Numbered from the stretch's first letter, positions 8,432 through 15,426 are shown. The stretch: DNA of 16,129 nucleotides from a virus (IMGVR_UViG_2563367001_000002); one strand, 5' to 3'. A program made the numbers and translations. Notes: generated by a model not told the origin, from the sequence alone.

Positions 8432-8441
8432 TGGAGTGGAT

Positions 8442-10820
8442 ATGGCAGCAGTAAAAATCTCAGGTGTGCTGAAAGATGGTGCGGGAAAACCAATACAGAA
8501 CTGCACTATTCAACTGAAGGCAAAGCGTAACAGCACCACGGTACTGGTGAACACGGTGGCTTCTGAAAATCCGGATGAAGCCGGACGTTACAGCATGGAT
8601 GTTGAGTATGGCCAGTACAGCGTCACCCTGCTGGTTGAAGGTTTTCCGCCTTCACATGCCGGGACCATTACCGTCTATGAAGGCTCCAGACCAGGTACGC
8701 TGAATGATTTTCTCGGTGCCATGACGGAAGATGATGTCATGCCGGAGGCATTGCGTCGTTTTGAGGAAATGGTGGAAGAAGCGGCACGCAACGCTGAAGC
8801 CGCCTCTCAGAGCGCAGCGGCGGCAAAGAAATCCGAAACTGCAGCGGCATCATCGAAGAACGCGGCGAAAACCTCAGAAACGAATGCAGCTAATAGTGCA
8901 CAGGCGGCAGCGACCTCAAAGACTGCATCGGCAAACTCCGCGACAGCAGCCAAAAAATCAGAAACCAACGCGAAAAATAGCGAGACAGCCGCAAAGACGA
9001 GCGAAACCAACGCAAAGTCCAGCCAGACGGCAGCGAAAACCAGCGAAACGAATGCCAAAGCCAGTGAAACTGCGGCAAAAAACAGCCAGGTTGCAGCAGC
9101 CCAAATCGAGAGCGCGGCAGCCGGTTCTGCGACTTCAGCAGCTGGATCAGCAACTGCTGCGGCTAACAGCCAGAAAGCTGCGAAGACGAGTGAAACTAAC
9201 GCAAAGTTCAGCCAGACGGCAGCGAAGACCAGCGAAACGAATGCCAAAGCCAGCGAAACTGCGGCGAAAAACAGTCAGGATGCAGCAGCCCAAAGCGAGA
9301 GTGCTGCAGCTGGTTCTGCAAGCGCGGCGGCTGCTTCTGCCACTGCATCAGCCAACAGTCAAAAAGCAGCAAAAACCAGTGAAACCAATGCAAAGACAAG
9401 CGAGACTGCAGCGGCGAACTCGGCGAAAGCATCGGCAGCAAGCCAGACAGCAGCTAAAGCAAGTGAAGACGCAGCCAGAGAGTATGCAAGTCAGGCAGCA
9501 GAGCCGTATAAATATGTCTTACAGCCGCTGCCTGATGTGTGGATACCATTTAACGATTCGCTGGATATGATTACGGGCTTTTCGCCATCATATAAAAAAA
9601 TTGTTATTGGTGACGATGAAATAACGATGCCTGGCGACAAGATTGTTAAGTTTAAACGTGCATCGAAAGCAACCTATATTAACAAATCTGGTGTGCTGAC
9701 AGAGGCTGCCATTGACGAGCCACGATTTGAACGTGATGGCCTGCTTATTGAGGGGCAAAGAACAAACTACATGCTCAATTCGGAAAGCCCTGCAAGTTGG
9801 GGGCGATCATCAAATATGGATGTGCCCGAAACAGGGACGGATAATTTTGGTTTTACCTATGGAAAGTTTGTCTGCAACGATTCTCTGATTGGGCAAACCT
9901 CAGCCATTAATATGGCATCAATTGCTGCAACAAAGTCAGTTGATGTCTCAGGCGATAATAAACACGTGACAACCTCATGTCGTTTTAAAACAGAACTGCA
10001 GGTAAGGTTGCGTATCCGGTTTGATAAATATGACGGTAGCACAACAACTTTTCTTGGTGATGCGTATATTGATACACAAACGCTTGAAATTAATATGACA
10101 GGCGGTGCTGCCTCAAGAATTACAGCGAGAGTCAGAAAGGACGAAGCTACCGGATGGATTTTTGCAGAGGCAACAATTCAGGCAATTGATGGGGAGTTAA
10201 AAATAGGCTCTCAGATACAGTATTCTCCTGGGCAGGGTGGGGCAACAGTATCTGGTGACTATATTTATCTTGCCACCCCACAAGTAGAGAATGGGCCGTG
10301 TGTATCATCATTTATTATTTCAGGAGGCAGCGCAACGACAAGAGCCAGTGATTTGGTTAGTATCCCCACCAGAAATAATCTTTATAAGTTACCATTTACT
10401 TTTTTACTTGAGATTCATAAAAACTGGGATATTGCACCAAACGCCGCACCCCGCGTGTGGGATATAGCAGCAGCCAATACCGGGCAATCAGCAATTGCAG
10501 CAATCAACAGAGGTAGTGGTAAGTTATATATGAGTCTGTCAAACCCTTCAGGCTCGTATGTTAATAGCGCAGCGACAGATGTATTTGCAGAGAAAACCAC
10601 ATTTGGATGTATTGCAAAAGCTGATGGTCACTTTCATGTGGTGACAAATGGTAAAGCGGTTAATGAAGTTTATTGTGAATATAATGGCGTGACCGCTGAT
10701 AAAAATATCCGATTTGGAGGGCAGACGAATACTGGAGAACGACATCTGTTTGGCCATATTCGCAATTTCCGCATATGGCATAAAGAATTAAATGACAGGC
10801 AATTAAAAGAGGTCGTATGA
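8442..10820 (+). CDS. stf: Side tail fibre protein (Stf-like N-terminus, Ala/Ser/Thr-rich repeat shaft, LamG/ConA-like C-terminal domain)
   Basis: N-terminus MAVKISGVLKDGAGKPIQNCTIQLKAKRNSTT... matches the lambda Stf N-terminus as I recall it. I chose the ATG at 8442 with GGAG 5-8 nt upstream; the ORF track's 8436 is a GTG two codons earlier. The central part has KTSETNAK-type repeats. The C-terminus ends ...IRFGGQTNTGERHLFGHIRNFRIWHKELNDRQLKEVV, the typical end of a LamG (concanavalin-like lectin) domain. Confidence 0.8.
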   Translation: MAAVKISGVLKDGAGKPIQNCTIQLKAKRNSTTVLVNTVASENPDEAGRYSMDVEYGQYSVTLLVEGFPPSHAGTITVYEGSRPGTLNDFLGAMTEDDVMPEALRRFEEMVEEAARNAEAASQSAAAAKKSETAAASSKNAAKTSETNAANSAQAAATSKTASANSATAAKKSETNAKNSETAAKTSETNAKSSQTAAKTSETNAKASETAAKNSQVAAAQIESAAAGSATSAAGSATAAANSQKAAKTSETNAKFSQTAAKTSETNAKASETAAKNSQDAAAQSESAAAGSASAAAASATASANSQKAAKTSETNAKTSETAAANSAKASAASQTAAKASEDAAREYASQAAEPYKYVLQPLPDVWIPFNDSLDMITGFSPSYKKIVIGDDEITMPGDKIVKFKRASKATYINKSGVLTEAAIDEPRFERDGLLIEGQRTNYMLNSESPASWGRSSNMDVPETGTDNFGFTYGKFVCNDSLIGQTSAINMASIAATKSVDVSGDNKHVTTSCRFKTELQVRLRIRFDKYDGSTTTFLGDAYIDTQTLEINMTGGAASRITARVRKDEATGWIFAEATIQAIDGELKIGSQIQYSPGQGGATVSGDYIYLATPQVENGPCVSSFIISGGSATTRASDLVSIPTRNNLYKLPFTFLLEIHKNWDIAPNAAPRVWDIAAANTGQSAIAAINRGSGKLYMSLSNPSGSYVNSAATDVFAEKTTFGCIAKADGHFHVVTNGKAVNEVYCEYNGVTADKNIRFGGQTNTGERHLFGHIRNFRIWHKELNDRQLKEVV
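8991..9413 (+). repeat. In-frame 189-bp (63-aa) tandem repeat inside stf, about 2.2 copies, roughly 90% identical
   Basis: Unit A 8991-9179 (gcaaagacgagcgaaaccaacgcaaag...) recurs as unit B 9180-9368 (gcgaagacgagtgaaactaacgcaaag...), with a partial third copy to about 9413. Protein-level repeat ...AKTSETNAK(S/F)SQTAAKTSETNAKASETAAKNSQ...ANSQKA. Confidence 0.85.
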
Positions 10821-11095
10821 AAGATTTAACTTTGAAGTTTCATGACAAACTGCAGTTTAAGGCCTTCCTGTCATCTCTTGGCTGGGCGGAAGATGAAGAC
10901 CTCCAGAATAAACTGTTAGTTGATGAAATTGGTTTCACCTACACAGAAACAGGGGTAACAGAAGAGGGAGAACCTGTCTGTATCCGGAATGATGGTTATT
11001 TTGTCAACATTCGCATTCTTGATGACTTGTTTGATGTTTCTGTATTCTCTGATTATGTCGTGGAGCTGGAAACACCGCTTCGGGAATGGAGCTGA
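10817..11095 (+). CDS. Hypothetical acidic protein, 92 aa, translationally coupled to stf
   Basis: ATG overlaps the stf stop (ATGA, 10817-10820). Good SD (AAGAGG) 6 nt upstream. No TM segment, net acidic. I recognise no family. About 41% GC. Confidence 0.55.
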   Translation: MKDLTLKFHDKLQFKAFLSSLGWAEDEDLQNKLLVDEIGFTYTETGVTEEGEPVCIRNDGYFVNIRILDDLFDVSVFSDYVVELETPLREWS

Positions 11096-11107
11096 AAGGA
11101 GGAAATA

Positions 11108-11401
11108 ATGGATATAAGCCCCTTACTTCATGCACTTTGTGCTGTGGCTGCGCAGATACTGGTTGGTCTTTTTACCGGAAACTGGGCTTACGGAGCGATA
11201 GCCGGTTGTACGTTCTTCATTGCGCGTGAACATACCCAGGCAGAATATCGCTGGATTGAAATGTTCGGGCATGGCAAGCGAATGAATATGCCGTGGTGGG
11301 GCGGTTTTGATCCGCGAGCTTGGGATGTGGCAAGCCTGATGGATTTTGCTGTGCCGGTGGTGGCGTGTCTGCTGGTCTGGCTGTTGGTTAATCGTGGGTG
11401 A
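11108..11401 (+). CDS. Hypothetical small membrane protein, 97 aa, two predicted TM helices
   Basis: Strong SD (AAGGAGG) 5-6 nt before the ATG. Hydrophobic stretches LLHALCAVAAQILVGLFTGNWAYGAIAGCTFFI and FAVPVVACLLVWLLV. Family not recognised. Confidence 0.55.
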   Translation: MDISPLLHALCAVAAQILVGLFTGNWAYGAIAGCTFFIAREHTQAEYRWIEMFGHGKRMNMPWWGGFDPRAWDVASLMDFAVPVVACLLVWLLVNRG

Positions 11402-11411
11402 AAAAAGGTGA

Positions 11412-11541
11412 GCTGTATATGCAACGGAGGAAGAAACCCCGTTGCTGGAAGCCAGGAAAAAGTATCGGGTGTTGCTGAACCGTGTTGATACATCAACTGC
11501 ACCTGATATTGAGTGGCCTACGAACCCTGTCAGGGAGTAAT
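11412..11541 (+). pseudogene. tfa: Tail fibre assembly protein (Tfa) C-terminal remnant, about 42 codons (tfaD-like)
   Basis: Frame translates ...[39 protein letters not shown], matching the conserved Tfa C-terminal motif (...[26 protein letters not shown]). No N-terminal part; an in-frame stop lies immediately upstream (11409-11411). Confidence 0.7.
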
Positions 11542-11554
11542 CATTGGGATTATG

Positions 11555-11604
11555 CCGCAGCACGTCTTAAGCAAGAACGTGCTGCGGTTGGATGCTATTT
11601 TTTC
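11555..11604. terminator. Hairpin between the convergent Tfa remnant and methyltransferase gene (candidate bidirectional terminator)
   Basis: Perfect 11-bp stem CCGCAGCACGT / ACGTGCTGCGG (11555-11565 and 11577-11587) with an 11-nt loop; a T-run (TATTTTTT) lies 9 nt downstream on the + strand. No U-tract on the minus-strand side. Confidence 0.45.
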
Positions 11605-12263
11605 CCTGAAGCGGAAAACATTACTACAGTACCTTGAACCTTGGTTTTAACATTCTCGAAATGCTCTGAGAGTATATGTGTTAAGCCTTCTTCGGAATCT
11701 TTTGTGTTTGAAAAGATGCCTTTCTGATTGTAAATGCGCATCAGTTTTTGACCGAAGCTATTGTGCACAACGCCGTCACCAAGAATTGTGGCTCCGTATA
11801 GAGTTCCATCGTCAGTTAAGGCCTGCGCCGCATTGCGTATTACACAGCTTTTTGTAGATATATTTCCAGGCAGGCAGTGAAGAAGGTAAAACATGGAAAT
11901 GGAATCAAATTGACCATGTAACGCCGCGGGATAAGGATCAAAAACATCATGGCTAATTTTATGTTTAATTTTTGATTCCCCAGCCCTTGTAGATGCCGCG
12001 TTCAGGCTAGCTTCGTTCAAATCCATTAAAGATATCAGACTACTCTCAGGTACGTGAGTAAGGTAAAACCCAGTTCCAACACCAATATCCAGATGGTTGT
12101 TACCTAAATGTTCCAGAAAGTGTGGAAGAAGGTGTTCCTTTGTAGGACATCCCCATGCAAGCCGATTTGATACTCCCAAAACCCACCAGTCATAAAGCTT
12201 TAGGGTAAGTGGTGTGTAAATTTTAGCCCCATCATCTGTGTTTTTTTTCATTAATTTCACCAT
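11595..12263 (-). CDS. ybcY: Class I SAM-dependent methyltransferase (ybcY-like), 222 aa
   Basis: Motif I LDIGVGTG (GxGxG), acidic residue in LMDLNE about 20 aa later, motif II-like FDSISMFYLLHCLP. Sits between two Tfa remnants exactly like ybcY in the K-12 DLP12 tfaD-ybcY-tfaX arrangement; the symbol is assigned from that context. A second in-frame ATG at codon 5 (CDS 11595..12251) has a better SD (GGTGA). Low GC. Confidence 0.7.
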   Translation of the reverse strand: MVKLMKKNTDDGAKIYTPLTLKLYDWWVLGVSNRLAWGCPTKEHLLPHFLEHLGNNHLDIGVGTGFYLTHVPESSLISLMDLNEASLNAASTRAGESKIKHKISHDVFDPYPAALHGQFDSISMFYLLHCLPGNISTKSCVIRNAAQALTDDGTLYGATILGDGVVHNSFGQKLMRIYNQKGIFSNTKDSEEGLTHILSEHFENVKTKVQGTVVMFSASGKK

Positions 12264-12319
12264 GTTATAGTTTTATTTGTGAATTAAATCAATTATGGCG
12301 ATGAATTACAAGGGGTTAA

Positions 12320-12618
12320 ATGCTGCCGCAGCATAGCGATATTGAAATAGCCTGGTATGCTTCGATACAGCAGGAGCCGAATGGCTGGAAGACCGTCACC
12401 ACACAGTTCTACATCCAGGAATTCAGTGAGTATATTGCGCCACTGCAGGATGCTGGGAAATCGCAACGGAGGAAGAAAGATCGTTGCTGGAGGCATGGAA
12501 TAAATATCGGGTATTGTTGAATCGTGTTGATACATCAGTAGCTCTGGGTATGAAGCTGTTTGTAACTCATGTTACAGTAACAACCATTACTATCTCGAAG
12601 GTGCAAAATGTATATTGA
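12320..12618 (+). pseudogene. tfa: Tail fibre assembly protein pseudogene (tfaX-like), frameshifted
   Basis: One frame gives ...[10 protein letters not shown] and, after a shift of frame near 12455, ...[30 protein letters not shown]... These are both parts of the conserved Tfa C-terminal domain, split across frames. The C-terminus diverges from the Tfa consensus after VDTS. Confidence 0.6.
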
Positions 12619-12746
12619 TTTGATATTTTATAAATTTACTTCGAATCTGGCACGTCAACTTTTGATTAAAGTAATATCAGTTTTCGGCGAAAAAAGGACC
12701 GTGTATATGAGACGATTTCATACAAGAATAACAAAAATATGAATAT

Positions 12747-12780
12747 GCTCCCAATGCAATATATGTTTTGCATTGGGAGC
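12747..12780 (-). terminator. Rho-independent terminator for the minus-strand peptidase gene
   Basis: Perfect 12-bp stem GCTCCCAATGCA / TGCATTGGGAGC with a 10-nt loop, 22 nt downstream of the peptidase stop. On the minus-strand transcript it is followed by AUAUUCAUAUUUUUGUUAUU. Confidence 0.65.
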
Positions 12781-12801
12781 AAATAGCGGAATATTTTGAA
12801 A

Positions 12802-14286
12802 TTATTGTATTTCTGCTTCAGAATTTCCTGGGCAGTATATATTTTCTATTTTTTGTGGAGTGATCAGGTGATGTACAACTGCTTTATCTACACATAAATT
12901 AACTCCGGTGAGAGCTAATGTATGCCCATCACCATTTATTGTTAGTAACGGGCTGGAAAATTTCTCTGCCATCTTACGGGCATTAATCCAGGGCGTTGTT
13001 GGGTCGTATTTGTGTGCTACAAACAGTAAACCAGAGGGCAGAACAGTATTTTTCAGGCGAGTTTTGTTCAGGTCGCTATGTATTGGCCATAATTCACAAA
13101 AATCAGGTGAATCGGAACGTCCATTGTCAAAGTTAATGGCCGGGAAGGCATTCGCAAGAGCGTCTTTTCGGGATTTTCGCTCTTCTGGTGTTAATTGCTC
13201 ATCCCCCTGATCTACACAGAGGATTACCCCCGAAGCATCGCTTGACTCTTCTGAGGCTATCGGAGCACTGAGCGCAGTTTCAATTTCATTACTGACAATC
13301 CCCTGAGAGAACTGGCGTATGGCAGTTGCAAGGGTTGGCCATGATGAACGCCATAGCAGAAGGTCTGTTGTTAATGATATGAGTTCATCTGAAGATATAT
13401 TTTCTCCCTTACTGTCTAATAAAGGTTTGTGATGTAATTTTGATAATAGCTCATGGAACTGAGTTATTGCCTTATCTCTGTCTGAAGAAAGCGGGCAACT
13501 TTTTGTACGCGCACACCAGGATGCAAAGCGATCAAACGTTTCCTGATAACTCTGTGCCTGTTTGAGTTGCCATGTGAAGTTGTCCTCCAGGTCATCGATA
13601 TCGACGACTCCATCAAGAACGATAGATCTTACGTTGTAGGGAAAACGTTCTGCATATAAGGCTGCAATTTGAGTTCCATACGAATACGCCACGGCTGTCA
13701 GTTGTTTATCCCCCAAGGCTTGCCTAATACGATCAATATCGTATACAGCCTCGTTAGAGCCGATATGGCGAATGACTTCGGCTCCGGTATTATGGATACA
13801 GGCATTAATTTTATTTAATACTTGTTGCTTTTCGGTTATGTTTTCCTGAGTCTCTGTATCTGATTGCCGGCAGTTTATTGTCGGAGTGGACTGTCCGACG
13901 CCTCGAGGATCAAATCCAATAATATCCCATGACTCACGAAGATTTGTGACTGGCCAGTCAAAGTTAATATAAGGATTTATGCCTGGTAACCCGGGACCAC
14001 CACTTATTATCAGGATACTTCCTTTATGCTTGCTTTTTGCCGGCAATTTTGTCAACGCTAGTTTGACTTGTGATTTTTTTTCATAAGAAGCATCTCCGCC
14101 TGTGTCTGTATATTTTAATGGAACAGACAAATAACCACATAGTAAGTCAGGAGACGGTTTTTCCTCACCAAACCAGTGGTTGAATTGACTGGCCATACAG
14201 GATTGCCACTGTATCTGCTGGGCAGATACGGTTACTGGTAGAAGTAACGTTAAAACAACTTTGAAATGAGTAATTATTTTTCGCAT
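12802..14286 (-). CDS. Signal-peptide-bearing (exported) alpha/beta-hydrolase peptidase, S33 / TAP-like (tripeptidyl or prolyl aminopeptidase family), 494 aa
   Basis: N-terminal signal peptide (MRKIITHFKVVLTLLLPVTVSA|QQ). GGPG oxyanion motif (ILIISGGPGLPG), GFDPRGVGQS, nucleophile elbow AYSYGT (GxSYG-type), C-terminal Asp/His region (INGDGHTLAL). Low GC. Confidence 0.75.
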   Translation of the reverse strand: MRKIITHFKVVLTLLLPVTVSAQQIQWQSCMASQFNHWFGEEKPSPDLLCGYLSVPLKYTDTGGDASYEKKSQVKLALTKLPAKSKHKGSILIISGGPGLPGINPYINFDWPVTNLRESWDIIGFDPRGVGQSTPTINCRQSDTETQENITEKQQVLNKINACIHNTGAEVIRHIGSNEAVYDIDRIRQALGDKQLTAVAYSYGTQIAALYAERFPYNVRSIVLDGVVDIDDLEDNFTWQLKQAQSYQETFDRFASWCARTKSCPLSSDRDKAITQFHELLSKLHHKPLLDSKGENISSDELISLTTDLLLWRSSWPTLATAIRQFSQGIVSNEIETALSAPIASEESSDASGVILCVDQGDEQLTPEERKSRKDALANAFPAINFDNGRSDSPDFCELWPIHSDLNKTRLKNTVLPSGLLFVAHKYDPTTPWINARKMAEKFSSPLLTINGDGHTLALTGVNLCVDKAVVHHLITPQKIENIYCPGNSEAEIQ

Positions 14287-14472: not shown

Positions 14473-15426
14473 TTAAAAGGTGTACTTAAGACCAGCAGTA
14501 GTGATGAAGTTATAGTTTTCTATGCCTGCACCATTTTTGCTGTAGTCTGAAGTGTTATCATTGTGATCATAAAGTGAAGTATTACCTTTTTTATTCGTAA
14601 CCCGATTCCATGCGCCTTCAACATAAACTTTTGCGTTAGGTGTTACGTAATAACCTGCATTGACTGCAACAGAATAGTAATTTTGGTCTTTGACTTTACT
14701 GCGATAAGTGATTCTTTTTCCTGGGTCATAGTGCTCATCGTTATCAGATGCTTCCACCCAGCCGCTGTATTTAAATGTGCCACCTAGCTCAAAATCTTCA
14801 TAACGATAACTTCCAGTCAAGCCAATGTAGGGCATTTTAAAACGTTGTTTGTAGCCGATTGCTCTTTCTCCATTCGGGAAGGAGCCGATATCATCTCTGA
14901 ATCCCTCCTCAGAACTGTAGATATAGGAACCACCTCTGGCTGTAAAGCTATAACGGCTTTCCTGATATCCGGCCATGAGTCCCAGGCGGTAATTGGGTTC
15001 GTTGAGGAGCCAGCCTTTGATATTCAGATCAAATTCGTTGGCATAATTGAGTTGTGTATCAGGGTGCCTACTTTCATCTGTCCAGGTTCCGGGGTTACTG
15101 GAATCCATCCAGTCCTGATCGACCATATTGCCACCTCGGCTGCCGAGAGTAGTCCAGCCCGCAGCCCCAATAGATATCTGGGGCATCAAATCCCAATTAA
15201 TTGCACCTTTAATAATTGCAGCGTTATTGAATTTCCAGTCAAGTTGACTGACTTTTCGGCCTCCTTCTTCGGCTAGATAAACACGCTCTTTTGTTTTTCC
15301 GCTCAGAGTTCCAAGACTAATGTCCGCATTTATGTTGTCAGGAGTAAACGATAAAGTCTCGGTAGAAGCAAAAGAGCTGATCGCAATAGGGGTTGTCAGG
15401 ACTATTCCCAGAAGTTTCGCCCGCAT
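14473..15426 (-). CDS. ompT: Outer membrane protease OmpT (omptin, peptidase family A26), 317 aa
   Basis: 317-aa ORF with signal peptide MRAKLLGIVLTTPIAISSFA and C-terminal ...TTAGLKYTF. Essentially collinear with E. coli K-12 OmpT as I recall it. GGAG SD 8 nt upstream of the ATG. Confidence 0.93.
   Translation of the reverse strand: MRAKLLGIVLTTPIAISSFASTETLSFTPDNINADISLGTLSGKTKERVYLAEEGGRKVSQLDWKFNNAAIIKGAINWDLMPQISIGAAGWTTLGSRGGNMVDQDWMDSSNPGTWTDESRHPDTQLNYANEFDLNIKGWLLNEPNYRLGLMAGYQESRYSFTARGGSYIYSSEEGFRDDIGSFPNGERAIGYKQRFKMPYIGLTGSYRYEDFELGGTFKYSGWVEASDNDEHYDPGKRITYRSKVKDQNYYSVAVNAGYYVTPNAKVYVEGAWNRVTNKKGNTSLYDHNDNTSDYSKNGAGIENYNFITTAGLKYTF

Follow-up and report, generated by a model that had tools for sequence, protein, structure and literature searches.

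We analysed a 16,129-nucleotide stretch of viral DNA (IMGVR_UViG_2563367001_000002), referred to here as the window. In it, a gene for a class I SAM-dependent methyltransferase lies on the minus strand, and its neighbours are tail fibre genes, two small phage ORFs, fragments of tfa, a gene for a TAP-like alpha/beta hydrolase and the gene for OmpT. The features of this region are listed below.

11412..11540, plus strand: tfa 3' fragment on the tail-gene side, 87% identical to the 3' end of lambda tfa
11421..11495, plus strand: left copy of a 75-nt direct repeat (repeat family D1) made of tfa 3' coding sequence
11555..11587, no strand assigned: stable GC-rich hairpin, called from its folding energy, between the convergent tfa fragment and the methyltransferase gene
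11595..12263, minus strand: ORF from the upstream ATG, class I SAM-dependent methyltransferase, intact form of ybcY (from Pfam, the structure model and the K-12 counterpart)
11595..12251, minus strand: probable coding sequence, 218 aa (from homologue starts, phrog_2132, RefSeq, the K-12 lesion and the promoter)
12264..12292, minus strand: sigma-70 promoter of the methyltransferase gene, TTGATT at 12292-12287, 17-nt spacer, TATAAC at 12269-12264; presumably active in the window strain, by analogy with K-12
12320..12618, plus strand: second tfa fragment (tfaX equivalent) on the int side, frameshifted, in two frames, one with IAPLQDA...
12463..12537, plus strand: right copy of the 75-nt direct repeat, 85% identical to the left copy
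12746..12781, minus strand: terminator-like hairpin after the hydrolase gene, 14-bp stem followed by a T-rich tail
12802..14286, minus strand: alpha/beta hydrolase (TAP-like), 494 aa, Abhydrolase_1 and Abhydrolase_4, phrog_20134
14473..15426, minus strand: ompT (omptin protease; Omptin, E 3e-130), with int just past the window

On the minus strand, the hairpin at 11555..11587 has a folding energy of -23.9 kcal/mol and a z value of -4.8; on the plus strand, its z value is -5.6. It is followed by a U-run on the plus strand only, and it may act as a terminator. The hairpin after the hydrolase gene sets the hydrolase transcript apart from that of the methyltransferase. The hydrolase itself, whose gene is also found in phage 2G7b, has an N-terminus that resembles a signal peptide, as judged by eye from the translation. 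Elsewhere, the tail-side tfa fragment is annotated as a partial tfa in APEC O18 and K-12, and the int-side fragment in K-12, phage 2G7b and strain 04-00955. The GC content of the methyltransferase gene is about 41%, compared with about 51% in the flanking phage genes and about 52% in the adjoining tfa region.

We found that the gene order of phage 2G7b is that of the window: J, lom, stf, small ORFs, the methyltransferase gene (minus strand), tfa fragments, and then the alpha/beta hydrolase gene, ompT and int, all on the minus strand. Therefore, the window spans the end of the tail genes together with the accessory region of a phage that resembles DLP12 or lambda. Among isolated lambdoid phages, 14 records contain the full-length protein at 98.6 to 99.5% identity; 2G7b, ev243, the PhiR series, Kati and Turner are among them, and an additional record comprises a fragment of 1.7 kb. 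Partial tfa sequences likewise enclose the gene in K-12 and phage 2G7b, in another prophage carried by APEC O18 and at two places in strain 04-00955, and flanking tfa sequence was present in every E. coli context that we examined.

Reading frame, promoter and the K-12 counterpart

The counterpart in K-12 is ybcY of the DLP12 prophage, which is annotated as "class I SAM-dependent methyltransferase, frameshifted" and to which the window gene is 98.7% identical at the nucleotide level. In K-12, a partial tfa gene flanks ybcY on either side, and appY and ompT come next. Thus, it is the same gene in the same place between tfa fragments, but the window copy is intact whereas the K-12 copy is broken, and the interval between tfaX' and ompT holds appY in K-12 and the TAP-like hydrolase gene in the window. 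The window gene is the intact form of ybcY and belongs to the YbcY / phrog_2132 family.

The ORF at 11595..12263 encodes 222 aa from its upstream ATG and contains no internal stop or frameshift. Within it, an inner ATG (12251-12249, minus strand) encodes M5 and is followed directly by a run of eight A residues. By alignment, the K-12 lesion consists of the loss of 2 nt, namely, the G of this inner ATG and one A of the run, and leaves the remaining frame intact; the K-12 copy has therefore lost the inner start codon. In 18 homologues from other genera, the first Met corresponds to residue 5 of the window ORF. The 218 positions of phrog_2132, a family of "unknown function," match residues 5 to 222 of the window protein from position 1 to position 218 (E 1.3e-156), and the RefSeq start for the sister copy in strain 04-00955 is the same Met.

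The promoter of K-12 ybcY, TTGATT-17-TATAAC, was assigned by genomic SELEX with the RpoD holoenzyme in vitro, and the ybcY intergenic site in K-12 is also listed as an H-NS target (PMC3946193). The window holds a sequence identical to this promoter, the -10 box of which abuts the upstream ATG. Because a transcript from the mapped promoter can use only the inner ATG at 12251, the protein probably has 218 aa, and the true coding sequence is probably 11595..12251 on the minus strand, starting at M5.

The initial annotation had described an intact 222-aa ORF on the opposite strand, carried as phage cargo, and had named the DLP12 counterpart as a pseudogene. The intact frame, the 14 phage records with the same layout and the frameshifted annotation of ybcY with its 2-nt lesion agree with this description. 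The upstream ATG does open the ORF, but translation probably begins four codons downstream, at M5.

The YbcY family in E. coli and beyond

To our count, 3832 of the 5426 complete E. coli genomes (71%) carry the gene at an identity of 95% or more, with up to four copies in one genome, and in 3799 genomes a locus covers at least 80% of the gene. The E. coli loci number 4877 in total. The frame is intact in all sampled full-length copies from E. coli and phages, save those of the K-12 lineage. The E. coli copies are annotated throughout as "class I SAM-dependent methyltransferase" (RefSeq, e.g., WP_000239878.1). The YbcY / phrog_2132 protein is already known, with annotations in RefSeq, PHROGs and thousands of genomes, and the novelty of the protein as such is therefore low. 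In the literature on ybcY, its Salmonella homologue STM1638 and methyltransferases among lambdoid accessory genes, we found positional or list mentions only, without functional data. Another K-12 prophage, e14, encodes the methyltransferase YmfD; we rejected a kinship of the two proteins, as BLASTP detected no similarity between them. Neither the presence of the gene in 71% of complete E. coli genomes nor the spread of related solo genes through bacteria and fungi, described below, had been mentioned in the initial annotation.

When 1.84 billion cluster representatives were searched with a profile, 1743 clusters matched at E<=1e-3 and 418 at E<=1e-30. Members were found in Enterobacterales, Pseudomonas, Xanthomonadales, Burkholderiales, Vibrio and Legionella and further in Acidobacteria, Myxococcota, Nostoc, a Bacillus-class genus, an actinobacterium and many ascomycete fungi. 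No family member that we found carries a functional name. Beyond the SAM motifs, residues Y16, Y24, D25, W37, C39, H57, H129, C130, K138, N179, F184, N186 and D189 are at least 90% conserved in distant members. The dN/dS ratio against Enterobacter and Klebsiella is about 0.1, at saturated dS, and sequence comparison thus points to purifying selection on the wider family. Differences among the E. coli copies are too rare for a dN/dS estimate, and since the copies are nearly identical, they offer little evidence of selection within the species.

Among the chromosomal homologues, Salmonella STM1638, named a putative SAM-dependent methyltransferase, is 57% identical to the window protein over its full length, has the same invariant residues and is likewise a solo gene. 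Unlike the window gene, however, STM1638 is not carried by a phage; it occupies a fixed chromosomal site, between the gene for a PMT_2 membrane protein and rydC/cybB, without flanking tfa fragments. Elsewhere, the homologue stands alone near a GDSL autotransporter gene in Yersinia, beside hydrolase, MerR, DJ-1 and ADH genes in Enterobacter, between IS elements in Aeromonas, between pirin and epoxide hydrolase genes in Lysobacter, within an HR-PKS, P450 and esterase cluster in Fusarium and among housekeeping genes in Trichoderma. The contexts in Pseudomonas and Janthinobacterium differ again. The Lysobacter, Enterobacter and Fusarium settings, which are few and lineage specific, hint by analogy at small-molecule chemistry.

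We clustered all ORFs within 6 kb of the gene, all against all, at 80 species loci and found no specific conserved neighbour; the recurrent clusters were SDR and LysR proteins, both of them generic families, and antisense shadow ORFs only. Therefore, the enzyme appears to be self-sufficient. In strain 04-00955, the general-stress genes yciGFE-katN lie beside the methyltransferase gene, and one Pseudomonas homologue adjoins DUF892 and Mn-catalase genes. We rejected a general functional link with yciGFE-katN, as the association was repeated in only 1 of the 80 further species loci, that of a Pseudomonas. Longer homologues contained no informative fusion domains, save for one fungal gene model with RCC1 repeats. 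The phage tail and tfa flanks are confined to the copies in E. coli and Shigella, and the phage copy is the capture of a widespread accessory gene.

Methyltransferase motifs and predicted structure

The window protein scored above the Pfam cutoffs for Methyltransf_12 (37.5 bits versus 30), Methyltransf_23 (28.6 versus 27) and Methyltransf_11 (24.4 versus 21.2). Motif I reads 58-LDIGVGTG-65. Two acidic residues, D81 for ribose binding and D106 for adenine binding, are invariant or nearly so across the family and aligned to D77 and D102 of CysG. SAM would be bound via G61, G63 and G65 of motif I together with D81, D106 and S121.

We then compared the protein with the NCBIfam models. The only matches were to PmtA_Leg, CpaM, RquA and PRK14968.1-3, at 12.8 to 17.6 bits against cutoffs of 162 to 390, and the window protein did not reach the NCBIfam cutoff for UbiE/MenG/Coq5, UbiG, RquA, BioC or NodS. 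Among 90 diverse family members, at E<=0.01, BioC was matched by 56, UbiE/MenG by 41, NodS by 27 and RquA by 20; the best E values of these matches ranged from 1e-10 to 6e-5, and they are matches to the generic core. The window protein belongs to the class I superfamily but lies outside every characterised subfamily testable here.

An AlphaFold model built from 19 homologues (pLDDT 87, pTM 0.85) predicts a seven-stranded Rossmann fold with the strands in class I order. N-terminal helices at residues 18 to 36 and 41 to 52 are predicted to form a lid, a helical insert follows strand 5 in the model, and residues 1 to 16 are polar and disordered. The best matches in a Foldseek search of the PDB were JHAMT, the phosphatidylethanolamine (PE) N-methyltransferase 8ys9, polyketide C-methyltransferase (CMeT) domains, CysG/BelI, NodS and PfPMT. 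The substrates of the top structural neighbours are small molecules, lipid head groups or tRNA, and no DNA methylases were found among these neighbours. A search of the viral fold database BFVD returned generic methyltransferases only. Because the structural ranking is flat and the sequence alignment is limited to the Rossmann core, structure does not settle the class of the substrate.

At the sequence level, the profile of the 90 members matched CysG/BelI best in the PDB (E 8e-8), over the Rossmann core only, while the single sequence and the profile of close homologues matched JHAMT and UbiG best (E 1e-3 to 6e-6). The neighbours that recur at the top at the sequence level, JHAMT, CysG/BelI and BioC, are carboxyl-methylating enzymes, which may be a weak hint as to the substrate. 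CysG and BelI (PDB 9FCD and 9FCE) are metal-dependent carboxyl O-methyltransferases of beta-lactone biosynthesis. They share with YbcY a Rossmann core of about 100 residues at about 16 to 18% identity, whereas the N-terminal substrate lid is unrelated, and the phage gene, unlike theirs, has no biosynthetic cluster around it. In the profile alignment, H129-C130 of the family aligned to the metal-binding H122-H123 of CysG. The second position of the CysG His-His-Asp set is therefore a Cys in the YbcY family (Cys130, conserved in 98% of members). D189, which is invariant in the family, is a candidate counterpart of CysG D191. Candidate metal ligands are C39, H57, H129, C130 and D189. JHAMT (PDB 7EC0), which ranks first in Foldseek, is 21% identical over the core only, with the substrate-binding parts unaligned; moreover, JHAMT and UbiG serve insect and quinone pathways that have no counterpart in the window context.

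We also searched for the features of DNA methylases. A regular-expression search of the window protein for a (D/N/S)PP(Y/F/W) motif IV found none, the nearest string being DPYP at residues 109 to 112. The Pfam DNA-methylase families N6_Mtase, N6_N4_Mtase, MethyltransfD12, Eco57I and MT-A70 gave no match even at E<=1. Of the features of C5-cytosine methylases, PCQ and a DNA_methylase Pfam match were absent, and a lone ENV at residue 203 lies in a C-terminal strand of the model. In the model, the lid helices and the seven-strand core are predicted to fill the 218 to 222 aa, leaving no target-recognition domain. No restriction endonuclease or specificity subunit is encoded among the window neighbours, and PADLOC returned only a chance-level mad2 match of 13.9 bits.

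These results bear out the class assigned in the initial annotation, a class I methyltransferase with motif I and an acidic motif. The HMM classification and the structural model that it had proposed as checks agree, the former with three Pfam families above cutoff and none of the DNA-methylase families, the latter with a predicted Rossmann fold. It was also right that the protein lacks a DPPY/NPPY motif and that the gene is an orphan with no endonuclease or specificity subunit nearby.

Candidate substrates and proposed role in the lysogen

We consider it likely, although far from certain, that YbcY works alone as a small-molecule methyltransferase, that the lysogen produces it and that its substrate is a soluble metabolite or xenobiotic. 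Lambdoid phages carry the YbcY enzyme gene between the tail fibre genes and att/int, on the strand opposite to the late tail operon. In this proposal, the gene would form a separate transcription unit, read from a sigma-70 promoter of its own that H-NS probably damps, and the enzyme would thus be made in the lysogen and not as part of virion production. Its methyl acceptor would most likely be an oxygen or nitrogen atom of a small soluble compound, for example a metabolite or a xenobiotic in the form of an acid, a phenol or an amine. As modelled, the pocket would be lined on the lid side by the N-terminal helices with Y16, Y24, D25, W37 and C39 and on the core side by the loop after strand 4 (H129 and C130) and the insert after strand 5 (N179, F184, N186 and D189). 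H129 could serve as a general base or as a metal ligand, and no partner protein would be needed. The flanking tfa repeats would allow the cassette to move between lambdoid prophages by homologous recombination, and the gene has presumably spread among them in this way.

This layout resembles that of the lambdoid morons lom, bor and ompT, which, like the window gene, lie in the accessory region by the tail fibre genes, opposite to the late operon. The methyltransferase gene shares further moron traits, as it has its own promoter, a hairpin and a low GC content and is dispensable and variably present. However, the known morons lom, bor and ompT are envelope proteins with defined roles, whereas YbcY is a cytoplasmic enzyme. 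We infer that ybcY is an independent accessory gene, or moron, expressed in the lysogen and probably damped by H-NS.

We weighed several alternatives against the small-molecule reading. One is that YbcY methylates tRNA, rRNA or a protein and so tunes translation in the lysogen. The family is basic, with a median pI of 8.8 and 69% of members above 8, and a few members match the models for PrmC, RlmA and RsmC. However, these matches are weak and limited to few members, the window copy is neutral (pI 6.9 to 7.2), and the core and lid use all 218 aa, leaving no RNA-binding extension such as THUMP, PUA or S4. The NPPY of the PrmC-type glutamine methyltransferases is absent. In addition, the distribution is patchy and accessory, with fungal and IS-flanked copies and no fixed synteny, unlike that of housekeeping RNA methyltransferases. 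We regard this alternative as unlikely. We dropped pI as a sign of a nucleic-acid substrate, as the window copy is neutral and the family basic.

A second alternative is that the substrate is a membrane lipid or lipid-like molecule, either the PE head group, as for PmtA, or a quinone, as for UbiE, Coq5 and RquA. The enzyme would then alter the envelope of the lysogen, as lom and ompT of the same phage region do. The PmtA structure 8YS9 and PfPMT (3UJ7) are similar to YbcY in shape and length and have the highest TM-scores (0.63 to 0.67): 8ys9, of the same length, holds Foldseek ranks 2 and 4 (TM 0.63 to 0.66), and the Plasmodium phosphoethanolamine methyltransferases have the top query TM (0.67). 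In these enzymes, and by prediction in YbcY, an N-terminal lid with conserved tyrosines faces a His after strand 4. We take this Tyr...His arrangement to resemble the catalytic dyad of PMT, and the Y-x7-YD...W at the N-terminus of YbcY presumably resembles the N-termini of UbiE and PmtA. There are also weak NCBIfam matches to Legionella PmtA, RquA and UbiE/MenG. However, the window protein scores 17.6 bits against a cutoff of 390 for PmtA_Leg (NF045882) and 16.8 against 175 for RquA, and the profile match to 8ys9 (E 1.5e-4) covers the Rossmann core only and is weaker than those to CysG/BelI and NodS. An amphipathic membrane-binding N-terminus is not evident, as residues 1 to 16 are polar and disordered. 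Furthermore, we know of no report of methylated PE or phosphatidylcholine (PC) in E. coli strains with the intact gene. Thus, a lipid substrate seems quite unlikely.

It is also conceivable that the gene is intact but idle in E. coli, as H-NS-silenced baggage that hitchhikes between the tfa repeats of successful prophages. Its low GC content relative to the flanks and the listing of the K-12 site as an H-NS target fit such a history, as do the loss of the gene in K-12 through a 2-nt lesion and the little evidence of within-species selection given by the near-identical E. coli copies. In the sole assay reported, a K-12 deletion mutant was no different in Hha-overexpression toxicity. However, the frame is intact in all sampled full-length E. 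coli and phage copies bar the K-12 lineage, and the locus covers at least 80% of the gene in 3799 genomes. The catalytic and SAM motifs are all kept, the wider family appears to be under purifying selection, and the K-12 promoter was bound in vitro by the RNA polymerase holoenzyme. We therefore judge an idle gene to be very unlikely.

Finally, an orphan DNA methyltransferase that shields the DNA of phage or host against restriction, or that has an epigenetic role, would suit a gene without a partner in a prophage, orphan methylases being common phage cargo, but this reading is highly improbable given a protein without a DNA-methylase Pfam family, motif IV, PCQ or target-recognition domain, no meaningful PADLOC match and homologues in fungi, one of them inside a polyketide cluster; YbcY is almost certainly not a DNA methylase.

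The finding of a small solo methyltransferase is correct but ordinary: it reveals no new kind of system and mainly rules out the DNA-methylase reading. A bolder version, which we consider quite improbable, is that the lysogen gains new chemistry that was missed because K-12 has only a pseudogene, either by neutralising a specific toxic small molecule of the gut by methylation or by N-methylating an ethanolamine-type head group. Candidates for a toxic small molecule in the gut include microbial natural products and bile-derived or dietary compounds. If true, YbcY, which about 70% of E. coli carry, would be the first lambdoid conversion gene to work through methylation of a small molecule or lipid. 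The head-group version would mean that E. coli makes methylated phospholipids. More generally, the broken K-12 copy may explain why no phenotype has been seen. YbcY is among the most widespread uncharacterised phage-borne enzymes of E. coli, and in the window phage its gene belongs to the same cargo block as ompT and a putatively secreted hydrolase. If its substrate is a metabolite, a xenobiotic or a lipid, YbcY would represent a lysogenic-conversion function of a new chemical type.

Phage cargo: ompT and the neighboring hydrolase

Two minus-strand genes of the window belong here:

14473-15426, minus strand: ompT, compared with positions 10074-12673 of locus L014
12802-14286, minus strand: TAP-like alpha/beta hydrolase of 494 aa (Abhydrolase_1 and Abhydrolase_4; phrog_20134)

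We found that ompT is phage cargo in the window. In the isolated lambdoid phage 2G7b, int directly adjoins ompT (L014, 10074-12673), and thus a viable phage carries this outer-membrane protease along. The defective DLP12 prophage is therefore not the sole carrier of ompT. Phage 2G7b also encodes the hydrolase. In K-12 the slot of this gene, between the tfaX fragment and ompT, is occupied by appY. In PADLOC, the hydrolase matches a candidate model, C3a206 ("TAP-like protein"), at E 7e-56. Its N-terminus, judged by eye rather than with a predictor, looks like a signal peptide.

Separately, a 4.3-kb contig labeled "MAG: Bacillus sp." (JBJEFM010000006.1) carries the ompT-hydrolase-methyltransferase block of E. 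coli phage, with proteins 100% identical to those of that block. The contig is almost certainly from E. coli, either mis-binned or contaminating.

The tail fiber region

Three plus-strand features precede the tfa fragment:

8436-10820, plus strand: side tail fiber of 794 aa, with imperfect repeats at roughly 8730-9570
10817-11095, plus strand: small conserved phage ORF of 92 aa (phrog_1361)
11108-11401, plus strand: small conserved phage ORF of 97 aa, hydrophobic (phrog_1443)

The side tail fiber is unlike lambda Stf. It has a long region rich in Ala, Ser, and Thr with imperfect repeats (…AAKTSETNAKASETAAKNSQ…), and its C-terminal part matches the concanavalin-like Laminin_G_3 only below threshold (25.5 bits; cutoff, 27.6). 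Both small ORFs sit between stf and the tfa fragment, and the phrog_1443 product is probably located in the membrane. At the stf-tfa site, phage 2G7b has a complete tfa and an extra gene for a 345-aa fiber, both of which are absent from the window.

The methyltransferase gene: start site and neighbors

An A8 homopolymer follows the probable start codon of the methyltransferase gene (12240-12251, minus strand: ATGAAAAAAAAC), and the lesion of the K-12 pseudogene ybcY falls exactly on this start codon and tract (about 6650-6667 in L002, from the K-12-lineage strain PG20180050). Slippage in this tract could switch the gene on and off. At the other end of ybcY in PG20180050, a RefSeq 45-aa "nucleocapsid protein" (L002, 5919-6056) overlaps both the 3' end of this gene and the hairpin in the intergenic region; this looks like a spurious gene call.

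We observed catalase-type neighbors of the methyltransferase in two very distant lineages. In the prophage of E. coli 04-00955 (L023, 2358-5737), yciG, two ferritin-like (YciE/YciF) genes, and a Mn catalase gene are present as an inserted copy that directly adjoins the methyltransferase on the same strand. In a Pseudomonas subclade (L015, 3925-6681; L044, 3936-6645), DUF892, Mn catalase, DUF6388, and the methyltransferase homologue lie in a row. Among 80 loci from other species, a single one shows the Mn catalase/ferritin-like association again, and the arrangement is therefore probably a coincidence.

A fungal homologue in a possible polyketide cluster

The methyltransferase homologue from Fusarium denticulatum shares about 50% identity with the family member from Aspergillus. 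It is flanked by genes for a carboxylesterase, two P450s, a thioesterase-like protein, and a highly reducing polyketide synthase (PKS) (L104, 3186-20720) and may serve a polyketide cluster as a tailoring enzyme. Its setting is the sole genomic context that suggests a concrete type of substrate.
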